DNA of 64,000 nt, from positions 7,448-71,447 of the forward strand of contig JBCFAY010000009.1 of assembly GCA_038562375.1 (NCBI GenBank). The letters run 5' to 3'. Shown here piece by piece: positions 1-9,220 of the stretch (the stretch's first letter is position 1; each line of letters starts with the position of its first letter). Both the position numbers and the translations under genes were made by a program. The stretch comes from Bacillota bacterium. Lineage in GTDB: Bacteria > Bacillota > Clostridia > Christensenellales > CAG-138. Below the pieces are notes generated by a model. The model did not search any database. It was given only the letters and a program-made list of their open reading frames with translations, and was not told the origin of the DNA.

Positions 1-946
1 CGTGCGTGCGTCCGCAGGCGCAGGGTTCGGTGATCAGGCGCGAGATGTCGCGCGTGCGGTATCGAAGCAGCGGGAACGCCTCCTTGGAGACGGGCGTGAC
101 CACGACCTCGCCGTATTCGCCGTCGGGAACCGGCTCGCCGGTCTCGGGATTGATGATCTCCACGATAAAGTGATCCTCCGCGATGTGCAGCCCCGTTCTA
201 AGCTCGCACTCGCCGGACACGCCCGGGCCGATCAGCTCGCTCATGCCGTAGTTGTCCGTTGCGAGGATGCCGAAATTCTGCTCGATCAGCGCGCGCATCT
301 CGGGTGTGCAGCCTTCCGCGCCGAAGAGCCCTATGCGCAGCTTAAGCCTCTCGCGCAGATTGCGCTCCGCCGCGACCTCGCTCAGGTATACGGCGTAGGA
401 CGGGGTGGCCACAAGCACCGTGGTGCCGAAATCCTCCATGATCATCAGCTGCTTGTCCGTATTGCCCGAGGACATCGGGATCACCGTGCAGCCCACCTTC
501 TCGAGGCCCTGGTGCAGTCCGAGCGCGCCGGTAAAGAGGCCGTAGCCGAACGAGATCTGGGCGATATCGTCCTTTGTAACGCCCGTCATCACAATAAGCC
601 GGGCGACGCAGTCGCTCCAAACGTCGAGGTCGTGGCGCGTGTAGCCGACCACCGTAGGCTTGCCCGTGGTGCCGGAGCTCGCGTGGATGCGCACGACGTC
701 GCGCATGTCCGCCGCGAACATGCCGAACGGATAGTTGAGCCTTAAATCCTCCTTCGTCGTGAGGGGAATCCTCCTTAAATCCTCCAGCGAACGAATGTCC
801 TCCGGCTTGATCCCAAGGGAATCAAAACGCTCGCGATACAGGGGAACGCGGTTATAGACAAGCTCGACGGTCTTCTTCAGACGCTCCAGCTGAAGCTCCT
901 TGATCCGCTCGCGGGACATCGTCTCGATTTCCTGCTGAAAAAACAT
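1..946 (-). CDS. paaK: Phenylacetate-CoA ligase (PaaK-family adenylate-forming enzyme), first ~315 codons; the 3' end lies beyond the window edge
   Basis: It is absent from the ORF track because no stop codon falls inside the window. Reverse-strand translation from the ATG (cat at 944-946) reads [69 protein letters not shown]...[26 protein letters not shown]...[16 protein letters not shown]. That is the PaaK N-terminal domain plus the [11 protein letters not shown]-binding loop. An AGAGG Shine-Dalgarno sits 6 nt upstream. The plus-strand ORF 2..745 is its antisense shadow. Confidence 0.85.
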
Positions 947-1027
947 GCTGCACCTCTCTCGGTTTGATTGATTCATCCGGTCGCGCCGCGCGCCCGGATT
1001 CGGAATGCATCGCGCTTAAGCCGCGCG

Positions 1028-1190
1028 AAAATATAAATAGGCCGCAGCGCACTCCGCTGCGGCCCTTTTAAAAGAGTCTATACAGGGGAACTACGCTTGA
1101 GACAACGCCGATTTGCCGCCCTTTAGGCGGCCCGAATAAGAATAGCTGACTGTTCCGATCAAAAGGCGCATCTGTTTCCCCTTTGCGATT
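1028..1190 (-). promoter_or_regulatory. Structured 5' leader of paaK ending in an intrinsic terminator (candidate attenuator or riboswitch, class unknown)
   Basis: On the minus strand, GGGGAAAC (fwd 1174-1181) can pair with GTTCCCC (fwd 1085-1091). Internal hairpin GCCGCCTAAAGGGCGGC. Motifs CTTATTCGGG (fwd 1131-1140) and GTATAG (fwd 1078-1083). The terminator stem GGCCGCAGCG/CGCTGCGGCC (fwd 1040-1064) is followed by UAUUUAUAUUUU (fwd 1039-1028), about 80 nt before the paaK start. Confidence 0.5.
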
Positions 1191-1196
1191 TGTTAT

Positions 1197-1225
1197 ATTA
1201 TATATTATCTCAACTCCCATTGCAA
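1197..1225 (-). promoter_or_regulatory. Sigma-A type promoter for the paaK leader
   Basis: Minus strand reads TTGCAA (1225-1220), a 17-nt spacer, then TATAAT (1202-1197). Confidence 0.6.
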
Positions 1226-1329
1226 GGGTCCGGCCGCTTTTGTGCGCCGCATGCGCGGCGGGTTGACAAGCGGAAAGGGTTGATTCGATTGTATTGATTC
1301 CGCCGGTTTTGCGGATAATAAAAAAAATC

Positions 1330-1358
1330 TTTACATCCCGGTTCCCGGGTGATATACT
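1330..1358 (+). promoter_or_regulatory. Sigma-A type promoter for the aromatic amino-acid operon leader
   Basis: TTTACA (1330-1335), a 17-nt spacer, then TATACT (1353-1358). It lies 105 nt from the divergent paaK promoter. Confidence 0.6.
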
Positions 1359-1364
1359 GCACCC

Positions 1365-1554
1365 AAGAATCCCTTTGGAGAATGTGGAATGCAACAGCGT
1401 CTGTTTACAAGCGAAGCCCTGTATTATAGCTTTTATGGTTATTCGTACAAAGCTTATTCGGGTTTTGCTGCAATGAACGCATAGCTCCCTGTTCCCCAAG
1501 GTATAGTGGGAAGTCAGGCGCCGCAGCAACAACCGCTGCGGCGCTTTATTGTTT
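1365..1554 (+). promoter_or_regulatory. Structured 5' leader of the aro operon ending in an intrinsic terminator (candidate attenuator or riboswitch, class unknown)
   Basis: It carries motifs CTTATTCGGG (1453-1462), GTTCCCC (1491-1497) and GTATAG (1501-1506). The terminator stem GCGCCGCAGC/GCTGCGGCGC (1518-1544) is followed by TTTATTGTTT (1545-1554), only ~27 nt before the aroF ATG. An upstream TTGCTGC can pair with GCAGCAA, which overlaps the left terminator arm and gives a possible antiterminator. Confidence 0.5.
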
Positions 1555-1580: not shown

Positions 1581-2603
1581 ATGGTCGTTATATTGAAGAA
1601 GGACCCCGAAGAAAAACAGCTGGAGAATCTCGTCGCATGGCTAAAGAGCCTCGGCGTGGAAATCCACGTCTCCAAGGGCAGCATGCATACCATACTCGGC
1701 CTGATCGGCGATACGTCGGTCGTGGATATCGATCTCTTGCTCGCCCTTGACATCGTGCAGGACGTCAAGCGCATACAGGAGCCGTTCAAAAACGCCAACC
1801 GGAAATTCCATCCCGAGGACAGCGTGATTACCGTCGGCGATACCGCGGTGGGCGGCGGCGCGTTCGCCCTGATCGCGGGGCCGTGCTCCATCGAATCGAG
1901 CGAGCAGCTCTGCGGCATCGCCCAAAGCGTCAAACAGGCGGGCGCAACGATGCTGCGCGGCGGCGCGTTCAAGCCGCGCACCTCGCCCTACGCATTCCAG
2001 GGGCTGCGCGGGCACGGGATCGACCTTTTACTCGAGGCGAGGGCGCAGACCGGCCTGCCCGTGGTGACGGAGATCATGGATCTCTCGCAGCTCGAGCTGT
2101 TTGAAAACGTCGATCTTATACAGGTGGGCGCGCGCAATATGCAGAACTTCGAGCTTTTAAAGGCGCTCGGCCGCGTCGATAAGCCCATCCTGCTAAAGCG
2201 CGGCCTCTCGAGCACGCTTCAGGAGCTTTTGATGAGCGCGGAATACATCATGGCAGGCGGAAACGAGCGCGTGATCCTCTGCGAGCGCGGCATCCGCACG
2301 TTCTCGGACTACACGCGAAACACGCTCGATATCTCCGCCGTGCCGGTGCTCAAGAGCCTGACGCACCTGCCGGTCATCGTCGATCCAAGCCACGCGACGG
2401 GCCTGAGCGAATTCGTCGCGCCCATGACGCTCGCGGCGGTCGCCGCCGGGGCGGACGGCGTGATGATCGAGGTGCACAATGACCCGCCGCACGCGCTCTG
2501 CGACGGCAGGCAGTCGATCACGCCCGAGGCGTTCGCTTCGCTCGCCCGCGGGGTGGAAGCGATCCGCCCGTTCGCGTTCGGCGCCAAAGGTGCGGGCGTA
2601 TGA
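1581..2603 (+). CDS. aroF: 3-deoxy-7-phosphoheptulonate (DAHP) synthase, type I-beta with N-terminal ferredoxin-like regulatory domain
   Basis: ORF 1566..2603. I moved the start to ATG 1581, which has GGAGGG 6-7 nt upstream. The catalytic core shows IAGPCSIES and KPRTSPYAFQG, preceded by an extra N-terminal domain of ~70 aa. Confidence 0.9.
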   Translation: MVVILKKDPEEKQLENLVAWLKSLGVEIHVSKGSMHTILGLIGDTSVVDIDLLLALDIVQDVKRIQEPFKNANRKFHPEDSVITVGDTAVGGGAFALIAGPCSIESSEQLCGIAQSVKQAGATMLRGGAFKPRTSPYAFQGLRGHGIDLLLEARAQTGLPVVTEIMDLSQLELFENVDLIQVGARNMQNFELLKALGRVDKPILLKRGLSSTLQELLMSAEYIMAGGNERVILCERGIRTFSDYTRNTLDISAVPVLKSLTHLPVIVDPSHATGLSEFVAPMTLAAVAAGADGVMIEVHNDPPHALCDGRQSITPEAFASLARGVEAIRPFAFGAKGAGV

Positions 2604-3442
2604 ACGTCGGGATCGTAGGGCTGGGACTCATCGGCGGGTCGCTCGCCAAGGCGCTCAAGGAGCGCACTTCCCACACCGTTTACGCGAGCGATTGCAACAA
2701 GAGCGTATACCTTCGCGCAAAGCTCGAGAACGCCGCAGACGCGCCGCTCGACGAGGCGGCGCTCCCAAAGTGCGACGTGATATTTCTTGCCCTTTACCCG
2801 CATGATACGATAGACTATCTAAAGACAAACGCCGCGCTTTTCTCCAAGGATGCGATCGTGATGGACTGCTGCGGCGTAAAGAAACCGGTCTGCGACGGGG
2901 CGTTCCCCATCGCGAAAGCGCACGGCTTTACGTTTATCGGCGCGCACCCGATGGCGGGAACGGCGGCTTTCGGCTTTGAGAGCTCCAAGGGCACGATGTT
3001 CCACAATGCGCCGATGATCCTCTGTCCCGCTCCCGGAACGCCGATCGAAACGCTGGACAAAGTGAGAAAGCTCTGCCTGGAGCTCGGTTTTTCGCGGACG
3101 CCGCGCGTAAGCCCCGAGGAGCACGACAGGATGATCGCCTACACCTCGCAGCTCGCGCATGTGGTCTCGAGCGCGTATGTGCGCTCCGCATCCTCCCAGG
3201 AGCATAGGAATTTCTCCGCCGGGAGCTTCCGGGACATGACGCGCGTCGCAAAGCTCAACGCCCCGATGTGGGCGGAGCTTTTCCTCGACAACCGCGACTT
3301 CCTCGCGGACGAGATCGACGCACTGTGCGCGCGCATGAAGGAATACTCCGCCGCTCTGAGAAGCGGCGACGAGGCGGCGCTCCTTCGCCTGCTCGAGGAG
3401 GGCACGGAGGCAAAGCTGCGCGCCGACGAAAGGGATAAGTAA
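2600..3442 (+). CDS. tyrA: Prephenate dehydrogenase
   Basis: N-terminal Rossmann motif VGIVGLGLIGGSLA and the GAHPMAG motif. ATGA overlap with the aroF stop. Confidence 0.85.
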   Translation: MNVGIVGLGLIGGSLAKALKERTSHTVYASDCNKSVYLRAKLENAADAPLDEAALPKCDVIFLALYPHDTIDYLKTNAALFSKDAIVMDCCGVKKPVCDGAFPIAKAHGFTFIGAHPMAGTAAFGFESSKGTMFHNAPMILCPAPGTPIETLDKVRKLCLELGFSRTPRVSPEEHDRMIAYTSQLAHVVSSAYVRSASSQEHRNFSAGSFRDMTRVAKLNAPMWAELFLDNRDFLADEIDALCARMKEYSAALRSGDEAALLRLLEEGTEAKLRADERDK

Positions 3443-3443
3443 C

Positions 3444-4508
3444 ATGCACACGCTAAGGATCAACGCGTCCGTTGCCTATGACGTCGTTATCGGGCACGGG
3501 CTGCTCGCGGAGGCGGGCGACCGGTTGAAGGCGCTTTTGCCGCCCTGCCGCGCCGCCGTCGTCAGCGACTCAAACGTTTGGCCGCTCTACGGCAAGCGGG
3601 TAATAGGTTCGCTCAAAAGCGCGGGCTTTGATCCAATCCATTTCACCGTCGAGGCGGGCGAAGCTTCAAAATCCATGCGCACGCTCGCCGCTTTGCTTGA
3701 ATTTCTCGCAGGCGAACGCATTACGCGTTCGGACGTCCTCGTCGCGCTCGGCGGCGGAGTCGTGGGCGATCTGACCGGCTTCGCCGCCGCCTGCTACCTT
3801 CGCGGCGTGCGCTTCATACAGCTGCCCACCACGGTGCTCGCAATCGTCGACTCCTCCGTCGGCGGCAAAACCGCCGTCAATCTCGCGGCGGGAAAAAATC
3901 TCGCGGGCGCGTTCCATCAACCTTCGCTGGTAATCGCGGATCTCGACGCCTTCGCGACGCTCCCGCGCGATGTGGCCGCAGACGGCATGGTCGAAGCGCT
4001 CAAGGCCGGCGTATTGCGCGATGAAGCGCTCTTCGACAGGCTCGCGCGCAATGTTTCGCCGACCCTTTCGGAAGAGGACGCCGCGCGCTGCGTCGCCATC
4101 AAGGCGGAATTTGTCGCGGAGGATGAGTTCGACCGCGGCGTCCGCCAGCAGCTCAATCTCGGACATACGCTCGGGCACGCCGTCGAGCGGCTGAGCGGAT
4201 TTGCGCTCCCGCACGGGCACGCCGTCGCTATCGGCATGGCGCTCGCCGCGCGCGGCGCGTTCGCACGGGGTTTGACCGACGCAGAAACGCCGCTTCGCAT
4301 CGAGGCCGCGCTGAAGAACCTCCGGCTTCCGGTGAGTTCGCCATATAGCGCACAAGAGCTTTACGAAGCCGCTCTCACGGACAAGAAGCGCTCCGGCGGG
4401 CAGGTGACGCTGGTGCTCCCCCGGCGCATCGGCAAATGCGAGCTCGCGCCGTTGCCGCTTGAACAATTTTCAGACTTCATCCGCGCGGCGCTGGAGGTGC
4501 GCCTATGA
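3444..4508 (+). CDS. aroB: 3-dehydroquinate synthase
   Basis: Motifs GGGVVGDLTGFAAA, SSVGGKTAVN, LGHTLGHAVE and HGHAVAIG. Confidence 0.92.
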   Translation: MHTLRINASVAYDVVIGHGLLAEAGDRLKALLPPCRAAVVSDSNVWPLYGKRVIGSLKSAGFDPIHFTVEAGEASKSMRTLAALLEFLAGERITRSDVLVALGGGVVGDLTGFAAACYLRGVRFIQLPTTVLAIVDSSVGGKTAVNLAAGKNLAGAFHQPSLVIADLDAFATLPRDVAADGMVEALKAGVLRDEALFDRLARNVSPTLSEEDAARCVAIKAEFVAEDEFDRGVRQQLNLGHTLGHAVERLSGFALPHGHAVAIGMALAARGAFARGLTDAETPLRIEAALKNLRLPVSSPYSAQELYEAALTDKKRSGGQVTLVLPRRIGKCELAPLPLEQFSDFIRAALEVRL

Positions 4509-5755
4509 GGATCTGCATTCAGCCTTCCCCGCTTTCGGGAAAGGTCCGCGCCATCGCCTCCAAGTCCGACGCGCACCGGCTCTTAATCGCCGCCGCGCTC
4601 GCGGATGCGCCCACGAAGCTGCTGCTGCGCGGCGGCTCCAGGGATATCGACGCGACCGTGCGCTCGCTCACCGCGCTCGGCGCCGTCATTACCCGCGCGC
4701 AGGGATCCCTTACGGTGGAGCCCATCCGGGGAACGCCCGCATCGCCCGTGCTTGCCTGCGGCGAGAGCGCATCCACGATGCGCTTTCTGCTGCCGGTCGC
4801 CCCGGCGCTGTGCTCCGGCGTGCGCTTCACGGCAGAAGGACGTTTGCCCAAACGGCCGCTTTCGCCCCTTAAGGAGCGCATGGAGGAGCACGGCGTAAAC
4901 TTCCTCGCGCTGCCCGACGGGGTCTCGCTCACCGGAAGGCTTTCCGGCGGAAGTTACGAACTCCCCGGCGACGTGAGCTCCCAGTTCATCAGCGGCCTGT
5001 TGTTCGCGCTCCCGCTCACAAAAGAGGGCGGACAGATCCGCCTGACGACAAGGCTGCAGTCCGCCGGTTATGTCGATATGACGCTTGAGACGCTCGAGCG
5101 CTTCAAAATCCGCGTCGAGCGAAAGGACAACGTCTTTCGCGTGGAAGGCGGGCAAGCGTACCGCTCGCCCGGCGAGATTGCCGTGGAAGGGGATTGGTCC
5201 AACGCCGCGTTCTTCCTCGCGGCGGGCGCCGTCGGCGGCGACGTGACGGTGACGGGCCTGAACCAAAGCTCTCTTCAATGCGATCGCGCGATTTATCCGA
5301 TCCTCGAGAGCATGGGTGCGGACATCTCCTGGCAGAACGGCGCGCTGCGCGTAAAAAAGAGCGCGCTGAAAGGCATCGAAATCGATGCGGGCGACTGCCC
5401 CGACCTCGTTCCGATCCTCGCGTCGCTCGCCGCCTACGCCGAGGGCGAGACGCGCATCTACAATGCCGCGCGCCTAAGGATCAAGGAAAGCGACCGGCTT
5501 GAGGCCATGGCGAAGAACCTCTCCTCTATGGGCGCGGACATCACCGAGCTTCCCGACCAGCTCGTGATCCGCGGCGGCAGCCCGCTGCACTCGACGCGGC
5601 TCTCGAGCTTCCACGACCACCGGATCGCGATGTCGCTCGCCGTCGCGGCATCGACCGTCGGGGGCATCATCGCCCACGCCGACGCGGTGGATAAATCCTA
5701 TCCGCTCTTCTTCAAGGATTACAATAAGCTTGGGGGAATCGCCAATGTCCTCTAG
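4505..5755 (+). CDS. aroA: 3-phosphoshikimate 1-carboxyvinyltransferase (EPSP synthase)
   Basis: Motifs SKSDAHRLLIAAALA, LRIKESDRL and DHRIAMSLAVAA. 4-nt overlap with aroB. Confidence 0.93.
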   Translation: MRICIQPSPLSGKVRAIASKSDAHRLLIAAALADAPTKLLLRGGSRDIDATVRSLTALGAVITRAQGSLTVEPIRGTPASPVLACGESASTMRFLLPVAPALCSGVRFTAEGRLPKRPLSPLKERMEEHGVNFLALPDGVSLTGRLSGGSYELPGDVSSQFISGLLFALPLTKEGGQIRLTTRLQSAGYVDMTLETLERFKIRVERKDNVFRVEGGQAYRSPGEIAVEGDWSNAAFFLAAGAVGGDVTVTGLNQSSLQCDRAIYPILESMGADISWQNGALRVKKSALKGIEIDAGDCPDLVPILASLAAYAEGETRIYNAARLRIKESDRLEAMAKNLSSMGADITELPDQLVIRGGSPLHSTRLSSFHDHRIAMSLAVAASTVGGIIAHADAVDKSYPLFFKDYNKLGGIANVL

Positions 5756-6818
5756 TTTCGGCCATACGATCAAAATCACGCTGTTCGGTCAGTCCCATTC
5801 CGAGGCGATCGGGGTGGTGATCGACGGGCTGCCCGCGGGCGAGCCGGTCGATCTCGCCCTCGTGGAGGCGTTCCTTGCGCGCCGCGCGCCCGGACAGAAC
5901 GCGCTCTCTACGCCCCGGCGTGAAAAGGACAAACCTATCATCCTATCCGGCCTCGTCGACGGGCACACCTGCGGCGCGCCGCTCTGCGCGATCATCGAAA
6001 ACAAGGATGCGCGCCCGGCCGATTACGCGGCGCTTTCCAATTTGCCCCGCCCCTCCCATGCGGATTACCCCGCTTTTATCAAGCACCGCGGCCAGAACGA
6101 CATCCGCGGCGGCGGGCATTTCAGCGCCAGGCTCACCGCTCCCCTGTGCTTTGCCGGAGCGGTCTGCAAACAGCTGCTCGAACGCAGGGGCGTCGTCGTG
6201 GGCGCGCACATTCTGAGCGTCGGCCAGGCGTTTGACGCGCCGTTTGACCCGGTGAACGTTTCGGCGGACGAACTTTCGGCCATATCGGAACGCCGTTTGC
6301 CCGTATTGGACGAGGCCGCCCTCCCCGCGATCGAGGAGGAAATCCTCGCCGCTTCAAAAGAGCTTGATTCCGTCGGCGGCACGGTCGAATGCTGCGCGAT
6401 CGGCCTGCCCGTCGGTCTCGGCGAACCGATGTTCGACGGCATCGAAAACAGGCTTGCCGCTGCGCTCTTCGGCATCCCCGCCGTGCGCGGCGTGGAGTTC
6501 GGCGCTGGGTTTCGCGCGGCCGAAATGCGCGGCAGCGCCCACAACGACCCGTACTGCGTCAGGGACGGCCGCGTCGAAACCGCGACCAATCACCACGGCG
6601 GCGTATTGGGCGGCCTTACGACCGGTATGCCGCTCCTGCTGTGCGCCGCTTTCAAGCCCACGCCCTCGATCCCGAGAGAGCAGCGCACCGTCGACCTCGT
6701 TTTGCTTTCGGAACAATCCCTGGCCATCCGCGGCCGGCACGACCCGTGCGTGGTTGTGCGCGCAGTCCCCGTCGTCGAGGCGGTGACCGCGGCTGTGTTG
6801 CTGGATTTTATCATTTAA
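5745..6818 (+). CDS. aroC: Chorismate synthase
   Basis: ORF 5730..6818. I moved the start to ATG 5745 (MSSSFGHTIKITLFGQSHSEAIGVVIDGLPAG). C-terminal RGRHDPCVVVRAVPVVEA. Confidence 0.92.
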   Translation: MSSSFGHTIKITLFGQSHSEAIGVVIDGLPAGEPVDLALVEAFLARRAPGQNALSTPRREKDKPIILSGLVDGHTCGAPLCAIIENKDARPADYAALSNLPRPSHADYPAFIKHRGQNDIRGGGHFSARLTAPLCFAGAVCKQLLERRGVVVGAHILSVGQAFDAPFDPVNVSADELSAISERRLPVLDEAALPAIEEEILAASKELDSVGGTVECCAIGLPVGLGEPMFDGIENRLAAALFGIPAVRGVEFGAGFRAAEMRGSAHNDPYCVRDGRVETATNHHGGVLGGLTTGMPLLLCAAFKPTPSIPREQRTVDLVLLSEQSLAIRGRHDPCVVVRAVPVVEAVTAAVLLDFII

Positions 6819-6830
6819 AAAGGAGATCGT

Positions 6831-7985
6831 ATGGAACAAGATAAGCTCGCCCTGGTTCGCGCGCAGATCGACGAGATCGACAAGGAGCTTTGCAGGCTCT
6901 TTGAGGCGCGCATGGAAGCCGCGCGCGAAGCCGCGCGCTATAAGCTCGAACACGACATGCCCGTTTACGCGCCGTCGAGGGAGCGCGAGATCCTCGTTTC
7001 CCGCTCGCGCGAGGTCAAGCCGGAGCTTTCGGGCTATGCCCGAGTGCTCTACGCGACGCTGTTCGACCTGAGCCGCTCCTATCAGAGCGCACTGATGGCC
7101 GGGAATGCCGCCATGATCAAAGAGATCGAGGACGCGATCGCTTCCTCGCCCGAACGCCTCCCGTCCGAGGCGACCGTCGCCTGCCAGGGCGTGGAGGGGG
7201 CGTATTCGCAGCTCGCGTGCGACAGGCTGTTCTCGCTCGCCAACATCCTCTACTTCAACCGTTTCGACGGCGTGTTCCGCGCGGTGGAGCAGGGACTTTG
7301 CACCTACGGCATCCTGCCGGTGGAAAACAGCATCCACGGCACGGTCACCGAGGTATACGACCTGATGAAGCAGTACCGTTTCCACATCGTCAAGAGCCTA
7401 AGGATGCGCATCAACCACTGCCTGCTCGCGCTGCCCGGCGCGTCGCTCTCCGGCATAAAGGAGGTCTTCTCCCATGAGCAGGCGCTCGGCCAGTGCGGGG
7501 ATTTCCTAAAGACGCTCAAGGGCGCCCGCGTGACGCCGGTAGAGAACACCGCCATCGCCGCCAAGCAGCTCGCCGAATCCAAGCGGCGCGACGCGGCGGT
7601 CATCGCCTCGCGCGAGGCCGCTGCAGCGTATGGGCTCGTGCCGCTCACGGAAAACATCTCGAATTCCGACGGCAATTTCACGCGCTTTATCCTGATCACA
7701 AAGGATTTGGAAGTTCTGCCCGGCGCGAACCGCATCAGCCTGATGCTCTCCACAGAGCATAAGCCCGGCGCGCTCTACCGCGTGCTCGCGCGATTCGCGG
7801 CGCTCGGATACAACCTCACCAAGCTTGAGAGCCGCCCCGTCCCCGGCAGCGATTTCGAGTTCCTGTTCTACGCGGACGTCGAGGCGTCGGTGCGGGACGA
7901 GGCCGCGCGCAAACTGCTCGCGGATTTAAAGCAGAGCCAGCCGCGCTGCGACCTTTTGGGCTGCTATATGGAGGAATGCGTATGA
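6831..7985 (+). CDS. pheA: Bifunctional chorismate mutase / prephenate dehydratase with C-terminal ACT domain
   Basis: An N-terminal AroQ-type chorismate mutase helix (LVRAQIDEIDKELCRLFEARMEAAREAARYK). A prephenate dehydratase core (VACQGVEGAYSQLA, TRFILI). An ACT region with LTKLESRP. Confidence 0.9.
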   Translation: MEQDKLALVRAQIDEIDKELCRLFEARMEAAREAARYKLEHDMPVYAPSREREILVSRSREVKPELSGYARVLYATLFDLSRSYQSALMAGNAAMIKEIEDAIASSPERLPSEATVACQGVEGAYSQLACDRLFSLANILYFNRFDGVFRAVEQGLCTYGILPVENSIHGTVTEVYDLMKQYRFHIVKSLRMRINHCLLALPGASLSGIKEVFSHEQALGQCGDFLKTLKGARVTPVENTAIAAKQLAESKRRDAAVIASREAAAAYGLVPLTENISNSDGNFTRFILITKDLEVLPGANRISLMLSTEHKPGALYRVLARFAALGYNLTKLESRPVPGSDFEFLFYADVEASVRDEAARKLLADLKQSQPRCDLLGCYMEECV

Positions 7986-9220
7986 GGTGCGGCCTGCTCG
8001 GGCGCAGGCTCGGGCACAGCCACTCGCCGCGGATCCACGCCCTGTTCGCGGACTACGCGTTCGAGCTGTTCGAGCGCGAGCCGGAGGGGCTCAACGCGTT
8101 TTTTAAAGAACAAGCGTTCGACGGGCTGATGGTCACCATCCCCTACAAGCGCGACGTCATGCGCTATTGCGCGCGCATCGACCCCGCCGCAGCCCGCATC
8201 GGCGCCTTAAATGCGCTCGCACGCGAAAGCGACGGCAGCCTTACCGGCTACAATACCGATTATTTCGGCTTCCTTTCGCTCGCCGATCATGCTAAAATCG
8301 ATCTTGGCGTCAACAAAGCGCTGGTGCTCGGCACCGGCGGTACGAGCCGGACGGTCTCGCTCGCGCTCGAGGATCGCGGCGCAAAAGAGGTTCTTCAGGT
8401 ATCCCGCGAGGGAACGCTCAACTATGCGAACATCGGCCGACATGCCGACGCGGAGCTGATCGTCAATACCACGCCGGTAGGTATGTCGCCGGACATCACG
8501 AGCGCGCCTGTCGAGCTTTCCATGTTCCCTTCTCTCAAGGGTGTGATCGACGTCGTGTACAATCCGCTGCGCACCAAGCTGGTGCTCGACGCGCGGCGCC
8601 TGAGTCTCCCCGCGGCGGGGGGGCTCTATATGCTCGTAGCGCAGGCAAAAGCGGCGGCGGAGCTGTTTTGCAGGACCCCGATCCCCGAGGAACTTGTGCT
8701 CAAAGCGTTTCAAACCATGAGCCGCGCGCTTGAAAACATCGTGCTCGTCGGAATGCCCGGCTCCGGCAAAACGGCAATCGGCCGACGGCTCGCAGAAAAG
8801 ATGGGCCGAGAGTTCTATGATACCGACGCGCGCGTGGAGGCGCTCGCGGGCAAGAGCATCCCCGAGATCTTCAACGAGAACGGCGAGCCCGCGTTTCGCG
8901 CGCTGGAGCGCCGGGCTGTAAAGGAGCTTGCCGGGCACACCAAAATCGTGCTCGCCACGGGCGGCGGCGCGCCGCTTGATATCGGAAACAGAGATGCGCT
9001 GCGCTCGAGCGGTTATATCGTCTGCCTGCAACGTGAACTTTCCGCGCTCGCGCGCGAAGGCAGGCCTCTTTCGGCCGACCCCGCCGCCCTTGAGAAAATG
9101 GCCGAGGTCCGGCTGCCGATATACCGCGATTATGCGGACCTTTGCATAAAAAACGAAGGCGCGATCGACGCTATCGTCGACGCCATTTTGGAGGAATACA
9201 ATGCGCATCCTTGTAATTAA
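7982..9220 (+). CDS. aroE: Fused shikimate dehydrogenase (N-terminal) / shikimate kinase (C-terminal)
   Basis: ORF 7976..9220. Start 7982 is preferred because it has GGAGG 7 nt upstream and an ATGA overlap with the pheA stop. The N-terminal half (GLLGRRLGHSHSPRIH...VLGTGGTSRTV) is AroE-like. The C-terminal ~165 aa begin IVLVGMPGSGKTAIGRRLAEKMGREFYDTDA, an AroK P-loop. Confidence 0.85.
   Translation: MRCGLLGRRLGHSHSPRIHALFADYAFELFEREPEGLNAFFKEQAFDGLMVTIPYKRDVMRYCARIDPAAARIGALNALARESDGSLTGYNTDYFGFLSLADHAKIDLGVNKALVLGTGGTSRTVSLALEDRGAKEVLQVSREGTLNYANIGRHADAELIVNTTPVGMSPDITSAPVELSMFPSLKGVIDVVYNPLRTKLVLDARRLSLPAAGGLYMLVAQAKAAAELFCRTPIPEELVLKAFQTMSRALENIVLVGMPGSGKTAIGRRLAEKMGREFYDTDARVEALAGKSIPEIFNENGEPAFRALERRAVKELAGHTKIVLATGGGAPLDIGNRDALRSSGYIVCLQRELSALAREGRPLSADPAALEKMAEVRLPIYRDYADLCIKNEGAIDAIVDAILEEYNAHPCN

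Follow-up and report, generated by a model that had tools for sequence, protein, structure and literature searches.

Positions 1028 to 1554 of a 64-kb stretch of the Bacillota contig JBCFAY010000009.1 (the window, meaning all of the DNA analyzed here) contain two divergent transcript leaders, one in front of an operon that begins with aroF (the aro operon) and the other in front of a paaK-like gene of the phenylacetate-CoA ligase family. Both are served by near-consensus promoters that are located 105 nucleotides (nt) apart, and both have the build of an attenuator, in which the promoter is followed by a leader and, before the gene, by an intrinsic terminator (Table 1). All of these were found where a preliminary description of the region had placed them, and the identities of the flanking genes agree with its statement that both leaders front genes of aromatic metabolism. 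The elements that it reported as common to the two leaders are also present, namely, a 10-mer (motif 1, CTTATTCGGG), the sequence GTTCCCC-N1-3-GTATAG (motif 2), and terminator stems built on a common core.

The preliminary description regarded both leaders as untranslated and proposed a new riboswitch or attenuator class for aromatic metabolism. However, each leader holds a short open reading frame (ORF) that is preceded by a Shine-Dalgarno (SD) sequence and starts about 20 to 25 nt past the predicted transcription start. We consider it probable that both leaders are ribosome-mediated leader-peptide transcription attenuators that sense charged tRNA-Tyr and tRNA-Phe and are not metabolite-binding RNAs. 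For the aro leader, the sequence makes assignment as a Tyr/Phe leader-peptide attenuator very likely.

Table 1. Features of the two divergent leaders and the genes that they precede (window coordinates)
Feature	Position	Strand	Remarks
aro promoter, TTTACA-17-TG-n-TATACT	1330-1358	+	TG-extended -10; A-tract just 5'; predicted start ~1365
SD of aro leader ORF, GGAGAA	1377-1382	+
aro leader peptide ORF, 31 codons, MQQRLFTSEALYYSFYGYSYKAYSGFAAMNA	1389-1484	+	6 Tyr, 3 Phe; stop TAG 1482-1484
Region 1 (anti-antiterminator arm)	1410-1419	+	Just 5' of first Tyr codons
P1 hairpin within ORF	1428-1454	+	3' arm is Lys-Ala codons; matches family CTTTACC/GGTAAGG hairpin
Motif 1 in aro leader, CTTATTCGGG	1453-1462	+	Codons Ala-Tyr-Ser-Gly; family-conserved linker GCTTATTYGGG between P1 and region 2
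Region 2, GGTTTTGCTGC	1461-1471	+	Partner is region 1 or region 3
Motif 2 in aro leader, GTTCCCCAAGGTATAG	1491-1506	+	GTTCCCCAAGG part pairs with leader SD region (~1373-1384)
aro intrinsic terminator, regions 3 and 4	1516-1546, with U-rich tract to 1556	+	12-bp stem on GCCGCAGC/GCTGCGGC, -25.8 kcal/mol
paaK promoter, TTGCAA-17-TATAAT	1225-1197	-	Predicted start ~1190
SD region of paaK leader ORF, AAAGGGGAAAC	1184-1174	-	Pairs with GTTCCCC in minimum free energy fold
paaK leader ORF, 26 codons, MRLLIGTVSYSYSGRLKGGKSALSQA	1171-1091	-	ATG 1171-1169; two Tyr codons (TAT) within 1136-1144
Motif 1 in paaK leader, CTTATTCGGG	1131-1140	-	In-frame codons Ser-Tyr-Ser-Gly
Hairpin GGCCGCC-TAAA-GGGCGGC	1115-1132	-	Directly 3' of Tyr codons; -13.4 kcal/mol; identical in relative L161
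Motif 2 in paaK leader, GTTCCCCTGTATAG	1078-1091	-	Overlaps leader stop (TAG 1091-1093)
paaK leader terminator	1065-1039, with tail to 1027	-	11-bp stem on GCCGCAGC/GCTGCGGC, -24.9 kcal/mol, then TATTTATATTTT
aro operon: aroF (DAHP synthase, ferredoxin-like/FXD domain), tyrA, aroB, aroA, aroC, pheA (CM-PDT-ACT), aroE-aroK fusion	1581-9220	+
paaK-like phenylacetate-CoA ligase family gene (AMP-binding domain)	2-946	-	Cut by window edge

Leader ORF and alternative helices of the aro leader

Tyr and Phe account for 9 of the 31 codons in the aro leader ORF, the ATG of which (1389) is ~24 nt past the predicted transcription start, and 8 of these 9 are the rarer TAT or TTT (usage in the aro genes and paaK is 23 TAT versus 41 TAC and 31 TTT versus 75 TTC). 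The helix between region 1 (1410-1419) and region 2 (1460-1469) has an energy of -16.7 kcal/mol, and pairing of region 2 (1461-1471) with region 3 (1523-1534) gives an antiterminator of -16.5 kcal/mol. A long-range helix of about -15 kcal/mol between the GTTCCCC(AAGG) part of motif 2 and the SD encloses the ORF. The preliminary description had pointed to GGAGAAT in the aro leader as an imperfect equivalent of a pairing element in the paaK leader; the sequence does lie at that place, but it is the SD of the aro leader ORF.

Folds of the full leader with ribosome masks always gave the terminator and were thus uninformative, so the nascent transcript was folded only up to the terminator loop, with the 3' arm left off, under a ribosome-sized mask. 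Masking with the A site on codons 4 to 15 resulted in the 2:3 antiterminator, and folding without a ribosome resulted in the 1:2 helix, with the terminator arm mostly free of upstream pairing. Two outcomes of the folding weigh against attenuation by a stalled ribosome: in the simple mask model, neither region 1 nor region 2 is formally covered when the ribosome stalls at codons 16 to 20, and at equilibrium no fold of the full aro leader is more stable than the terminator. The switch must therefore be kinetic and cotranscriptional, as in trpL.

We compared the leader with the upstream regions of 80 aroF loci from GTDB genomes (63 to 76% protein identity), which are labeled Oscillospiraceae, “Ca. 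Limiplasma” (Christensenellales), Lachnospiraceae, Acutalibacteraceae, Christensenellaceae, Angelakisella massiliensis, and others and mostly carry Clostridia labels. Enough upstream sequence for a leader-ORF count was available for 76 of them. At a threshold of at least 6 aromatic residues per 12-residue window, an aromatic leader ORF lies upstream of aroF in 63 of the 76 loci, nearly always preceded by an SD; the controls gave 3 of 76 for the reverse complements and 12 of 380 for shuffled sequences. The peptides, of which MKRNLFAAEYFYFNFAYFFGKAFSRLADNRF and MKSITLSKTYFYYYFSFAFYFGKAFSGFAASQCDVAS are typical, have a median length of 28 residues and medians of 4 Tyr and 5 Phe codons. Tyr makes up 14.6% of their residues, Phe 18.1%, and Trp 0.3%; three or more Tyr together with three or more Phe are present in 60 of 65 peptides. 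All 67 leader-ORF loci examined in detail have an intrinsic terminator 14 to 72 nt 3' of the ORF stop, and in 65 of these region 2 can be reached by a ribosome at the stop codon (its 5' end lies at most 12 nt beyond the stop). One member of this family is from Angelakisella massiliensis (L035), which is in culture.

A sequence-only MAFFT alignment of 61 aroF leaders, with the window excluded (alignment A4), has a consensus that runs from the SD and ATG through TTT GCA GCT GAA (region 1), a TAC/TTT run, and CTTTACC...GGTAAGG (P1) to GCT TAT TYG GGT TTT GCT GCA, the end of which is region 2. A stop codon and a variable spacer follow and, at the 3' end, CCGCAGTGAAAC (region 3), CACTGCGG (region 4), and a U-tract. 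RNAalifold on the MAFFT alignment recovered nothing beyond the outer terminator pairs; the helices were therefore set by hand and then counted with slid-partner and shuffle controls. Expressed as the proportion of alignment cells, a cell being one sequence at one base pair, the antiterminator (2:3) is paired in 80%, the anti-antiterminator (1:2) in 63 to 73%, the P1 hairpin in 76%, and the terminator in 86 to 91%. The whole structure is only 36 to 51% paired when the partner is slid by 1 to 3 columns, and none of 500 shuffles reached the observed covariation. In these aligned sequences, the anti-antiterminator, antiterminator, and terminator pairings are thus each supported by covariation. Pairing between region 2 and region 3 is also stronger within a locus than with the terminator arm and loop of other loci (-14.4 versus -10.7 kcal/mol; 0 of 5,000 permutations). 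A permutation test of the SD against the spacer likewise gave stronger pairing within loci than across them, although we treat that result as no more than suggestive, since a base composition common to the whole genome could have the same effect.

A profile hidden Markov model (searched with nhmmer) and a covariance model, R1, were made from A4, and the window is in neither. Both match the aro leader, the profile at 1379-1554 (E = 1.4e-11) and R1 at 1373-1555 (58.5 bits; E = 2e-9). A window-wide scan for candidates that combine a leader peptide with a terminator found the aro leader alone.

Several other members or candidate members were seen in passing. An aromatic leader ORF and a terminator precede aroF in metagenome-assembled genomes (MAGs) labeled Victivallales, Thermoguttaceae, Victivallaceae, and Planctomycetia (L038, L057, L064, L074, and L077); these non-Clostridia labels could stem from horizontal transfer of the operon together with its attenuator or from mis-binned contigs. 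In a MAG labeled Spirochaetales, an R1 match of 34 bits (L029:635-823; E = 6e-4) lies ~2.2 kb upstream of aroF and may be a family member before a different gene. In L168 (2755-2868), the leader ORF is called as a 37-residue protein (MLSNTSKLAYSYYFSFGSFYAAKAFSGFADRDVAYSV) with no Pfam match, and such leader peptides are probably scattered in databases as hypothetical proteins.

Aromatic amino acid genes of Firmicutes are usually under T-box control, which speaks for a T-box at the locus. In this explanation, the leader would sense uncharged tRNA as a T-box or, alternatively, an amino acid-bound protein as an attenuator of the TRAP or PyrR type. However, the T-box family (RF00230) had no match up to E = 10 at positions 700-1900 and none at the gathering score anywhere in the window, and the T-box core sequence is absent from the 80 aroF loci. 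A TRAP site would be an array of 9 to 11 (G/U)AG triplets spaced 2 to 3 nt apart, whereas each leader has 5 or 6 scattered triplets, no two of which follow each other at that spacing. We regard either form of this explanation as extremely unlikely. Searches over the same two ranges gave no match to Phe_leader, Trp_leader, His_leader, Leu_leader, Thr_leader, or the leu/phe leader, and the permissive search of 700-1900 returned nothing relevant. The absence of a T-box, a TRAP array, or a known RNA family, as reported in the preliminary description, thus holds in these searches.

The paaK leader and its likeness to the aro leader

The ATG of the paaK leader ORF (1171) is ~19 nt past the predicted transcription start and is correctly spaced from its SD. 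In this leader GTTCCCC does pair with an upstream element, as had been described, but the partner given as GGGGAAC is GGGGAAAC, paired with a bulge, and is the SD of the leader ORF. The arms of the hairpin at 1115-1132 are the best available partners of the 5' arm of the paaK terminator and are candidates for regions 1 and 2. Both leaders end in terminators, which had been placed just upstream of the first genes, but the paaK terminator ends ~92 nt before the paaK start codon. The sequence between them (947-1038, minus strand) contains a GC-rich inverted repeat, ATCCGG...CCGGAT, and differs in L161.

A close lineage with the aroF-paaK arrangement is represented only by L161, L162, and L164, which were reached via protein P0001. 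L161, whose PaaK is 95% identical to that of the window, is the sole independent close relative for the paaK leader, at ~10% divergence. Its paaK leader ORF (MRLLIGTASYAYTSRLKGGKSALFQA) keeps the frame, the length, both TAT codons, and GTTCCCC, with changes in the neighboring codons. R1 matches the paaK leaders of both genomes end to end (26 bits in the window and 31.3 bits in L161; E of ~0.002 to 0.02) and brings the SD, ATG, Tyr codons, and terminator into register. Among other paaK loci, 421 kb in total, the highest R1 score is 21.8 bits (L131), and this candidate leader upstream of paaK was rejected, as it is actually the ordinary terminator of the preceding gene.

In the window, GTTCCCC-N1-3-GTATAG has only its two matches in the leaders, and GCCGCAGC...GCTGCGGC is likewise confined to two places, 1041-1063 and 1520-1542; none would be expected by chance for either. 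The preliminary description held that the sharing goes beyond chance, which stands for the collinear set but not for the 10-mer alone, which with one mismatch allowed is not enriched (4 found versus 4.2 expected in the window). Words of 6 nt or longer that the two leaders share form a collinear chain of 40 nt, compared with 19.7 ± 6.2 nt in dinucleotide shuffles (6 of 2,000 reach 40; P of ~0.003), and this length was reached by 1 of 2,000 random genomic segments. When the terminators are removed, the chain is 23 nt versus 11.5 nt, with 40 of 2,000 shuffles as high. From these figures the resemblance is real but modest, with much of it in the terminator stems.

The resemblance could have arisen by convergence or chance, since both leaders need Tyr codons, an anti-SD element, and a GC-rich terminator. 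Consistent with this, the terminator stems supply much of the chain score, and the best local alignment of the two leaders is modest (score of 23, reached by 43 of 2,000 shuffles) and covers a segment that differs from the motif set of the preliminary description. The two leaders of L161 also have far less in common than those of the window, and the chain between the L161 paaK leader and the L030 aro leader is as good as that between the two leaders of L161. However, the chain statistics, the end-to-end match of R1 to the paaK leader, and the adjacent and inverted placement of the elements, as local duplication would give, argue against convergence, as does the ranking of the window aro leader first among 63 aro leaders as a partner of the window paaK leader. 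We thus consider convergence unlikely. The two leaders are probably related to each other, and comparison of their sequences suggests that the paaK leader is probably a reduced derivative of the aro attenuator that arose via local inverted duplication.

The shared motifs themselves have a different fate among relatives than the ORF and helices. Motif 1 is in-frame coding sequence, (Ala/Ser)-Tyr-Ser-Gly, in both ORFs of the window; in L161 the 10-mer is CTTATTTGGG in the aro leader and CTTATACGAG in the paaK leader, and GTATAG is GTCATG and GTTTGG, respectively. At 80% AroF identity (L168), neither GTTCCCC nor GTATAG is present. Judged from these sequences, the GTTCCCC:SD helix is a feature of the window's lineage, and the GCCGCAGC core is the terminator/antiterminator core (region 3/4) of the family. 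The comparison with relatives that the preliminary description had called for thus came out in two ways: the aroF leaders covary, but GTATAG is not kept and distant paaK loci lack the leader.

These changes bear on the proposal of a riboswitch, by which both leaders would be untranslated members of a new class of ligand-sensing RNA for aromatic metabolites, with the shared motifs as the sensor. It is in keeping with this proposal that the collinear motifs do exist and are rarer than chance would give, that they match no known Rfam family, that both downstream genes concern aromatic compounds, and that both folds are more stable than those of shuffled leaders (z-scores of -2.5 and -4.3). However, the 10-mer and GTATAG are altered as nucleotides already in the closest relative, and a ligand-binding core would not drift between close relatives as these motifs do. 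What is conserved across more than 60 species is instead an SD-preceded ORF of Tyr/Phe codons with three mutually exclusive helices, which is a signature of ribosome sensing, and no conserved unpaired core of the aptamer type or multistem junction was seen. A new riboswitch class is therefore very unlikely here.

A more serious alternative is that the aro leader alone works as a leader-peptide attenuator. The paaK leader would then be a decayed or repurposed copy in which the ORF is incidental and the terminator is constitutive or responds to another factor. Several observations weigh against a working attenuator in front of paaK. Its ORF has only two Tyr codons (Tyr-Ser-Tyr), the L161 substitutions in that ORF have no codon-position bias (3, 2, and 4 at positions 1, 2, and 3), and the antiterminator is weak or atypical, with either 5 contiguous base pairs or a bipartite duplex of -14.9 kcal/mol. 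The nhmmer A4 profile has no match to the paaK leader, and, because the reverse strands of genuine family terminators reach up to 26.8 bits on R1, the paaK scores of 26 to 31 bits are only suggestive. Among 80 metagenomic paaK loci with 63 to 75% identity, there was no aromatic leader ORF, consistent terminator, or R1 match, and the paaK homologs of L165 and L166 have short nonaromatic ORFs followed by terminators. Against such decay, the paaK SD is strong and well spaced ~20 nt after a consensus promoter, the frame, length, TAT codons, and adjacent hairpin of the ORF are retained in L161, the stop codon falls exactly at the GTTCCCC element, and R1 aligns the parts of the leader in register in two genomes. 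We take an aro-only attenuator to be possible but somewhat doubtful. That the paaK leader works by the same attenuation design in a reduced form is slightly favored by its sequence. The fuller proposal, in which it is a functional Tyr-sensing attenuator derived by local inverted duplication and the ligase gene shares a tRNA-charging signal with aro synthesis, can be put forward only tentatively.

As far as the sampled loci tell, the paaK leader is lineage-specific. The gene is beside aroF in only 1 of the 80 GTDB aroF loci, where it is located downstream, so the arrangement is not conserved, and the closer relatives P0122 and P0123 have no paaK nearby. The sole Rfam match in 15 paaK loci was to an RNase P gene located elsewhere, with nothing at the leader. 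In L161, a gene for a 143-residue ACT-domain protein (5389-5820), not iorAB, follows paaK, and at 72 to 77% identity paaK is found in paaK-iorA-iorB(-ACT) operons (L165 and L166); the window's own gene 3' of paaK is not visible because paaK runs off the window edge. The short ORFs in the paaK leaders of L166 (2850-2960) and L165 (2900-2990), which are from Feifania hominis and an ENA contig, are preceded by SD sequences and lack aromatic codons (MKQRTTAVPPAAQSSA; MVVRRPHCRP). They adjoin terminator-like hairpins, and GTAGTAYGGGAGG is common to them at the SD. The human-gut paaK loci L093 to L129 have a hairpin in the 5' untranslated region (GCCGCAGCTGATAACTGCGGC) that is ~60 nt upstream of paaK and just after TATAAT (e.g., L099:2441-2461). 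This hairpin has the GCCGCAGC core of the window terminators, but its U-tract is poor and it has no leader ORF.

Proposed mechanism and related systems

In the proposed mechanism, transcription of the aro leader would start at ~1365, and a ribosome would load at GGAGAA/ATG (1377/1389) and translate the 31-codon ORF. If Tyr or Phe were scarce, the ribosome would stall in the aromatic run and cover region 1 or part it from region 2. Region 2, once freed, would pair with region 3 and block the terminator, and aroF-tyrA-aroB-aroA-aroC-pheA-aroEK would be transcribed. If Tyr and Phe were plentiful, the ribosome would reach the stop codon and mask region 2, which would allow the 3:4 terminator to form. 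Were the ORF not translated at all, the helix between regions 1 and 2 would form, and the 3:4 terminator would again result. The helix between the SD region and GTTCCCCAAGG, which encloses the whole ORF, probably limits reinitiation.

A reduced form of the same steps can be drawn for the paaK leader. A ribosome stalled at Tyr-Ser-Tyr would open the GC hairpin located just 3', with the stop codon overlapping GTTCCCC and the terminator next. If the leader is a duplicate, the phenylacetate-CoA ligase-family gene would be coupled to the same starvation signal. The paaK-like gene may salvage arylacetates.

The mechanism is classical attenuation of the trpL/pheL type and not a new class of regulator. 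Like the enterobacterial trpL, pheL/pheA, hisL, and thrL leaders (RF00513, RF01859, and related families), the aro leader has a short SD-preceded ORF near the transcription start with clustered codons for the end products of the pathway. It also has four regions that form exclusive 1:2, 2:3, and 3:4 helices, of which 3:4 is the intrinsic terminator, and a stop codon placed such that a terminating ribosome can mask region 2. However, it has no sequence or covariance-model similarity to those leaders. Unlike them, it would sense Tyr and Phe jointly through interleaved codons, its region 1 is just 5' of the regulatory codons and not over them, and it adds the P1 hairpin inside the ORF and the SD-sequestering helix. 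The host, in contrast to the enterobacteria, is a Gram-positive anaerobe, in which T-boxes are usual.

The attenuator-like build in the original proposal thus stands, but the novelty of its kind does not, since precedents exist upstream of aroF itself. One is the uORFC-13-1 motif, reported ahead of aroF in Acholeplasma and in environmental sequences, which comprises promoter-like boxes, a ribosome-binding site and start codon, a U-rich Phe-encoding run, and an intrinsic terminator next to it (Brewer et al. 2021, PMC8632094). Ribosome-mediated attenuation was proposed by its authors, who described only 24 representatives, with “at least one” Phe codon (PMC8632094). Compared by description only, the motif and the aro family have in common an upstream ORF with Phe codons, the adjacent terminator, and the position upstream of aroF. 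However, the aro family has a median of 4 Tyr plus 5 Phe codons and is found in loci labeled Oscillospiraceae, Christensenellales (“Ca. Limiplasma”), Lachnospiraceae, and others. The motif was not matched in the Rfam 15 search of the window leaders. In Corynebacterium glutamicum, a leader peptide with Phe-Tyr-Phe precedes the DAHP synthase gene aroF (cg1129), and the attenuator transcript was detected by transcriptome sequencing (Mentz et al. 2013, PMC4046766). That organism belongs to the Actinobacteria and its leader has a much shorter aromatic cluster, whereas the aro family is mostly labeled clostridial; the two are alike in layout. Histidine leader peptides occur in some Firmicutes, including Peptostreptococcaceae, as sporadic replacements of T-boxes (Naville and Gautheret 2010, PMC2965389; PMC9413887). 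The aro family differs from these in its amino acids and its genes, and its sequence is unrelated. The literature searched held no description of the aroF leader family, and no Rfam 15 model matched it.

Flanking features and significance

Start and stop codons of neighboring genes in the aro operon overlap (2600-2603, 4505-4508, 5730-5755, and 7976-7985), which suggests translational coupling. The last gene of the operon (7976-9220) is a fusion of aroE and aroK, with an N-terminal shikimate dehydrogenase domain and a shikimate kinase. The segment directly 5' of the aro -35 box (1299-1329) contains a small hairpin (TCCGCCGGTTTTGCGGA) and, after it, an A-tract (AATAAAAAAAATC) and looks like an UP element; a weak Rfam match to UPD-PKf at the same positions was dismissed as chance (E = 2.5). 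L161 has ~300 extra nt between its divergent promoters (3340-3640, aligning between 1226 and 1300 of the window in alignment A3), and this insert holds several TGTTCC-containing units. Across the whole window there was no Rfam family at the gathering score and no tRNA gene.

The element in front of the aro operon would thus read tRNA charging through a stalling ribosome and would not bind a metabolite. It also points to a gap in annotation, in that most of the 80 loci have, ahead of aroF, a Tyr/Phe leader peptide with covarying alternative helices, yet Rfam 15 is without a model for it, and gene callers overlook the leader ORF or, as in L168, call it a hypothetical protein. T-boxes would then not be the sole control of aromatic amino acid genes at the RNA level in Clostridia, and Angelakisella massiliensis, as a cultured carrier, is a possible experimental system. 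If the paaK copy is functional, it would represent an attenuator caught in the act of moving onto a new gene by local duplication. If the proposed reading of the aro element is true, the element would define a large Tyr/Phe leader-peptide family that takes the place of T-boxes in many Clostridia of the gut.

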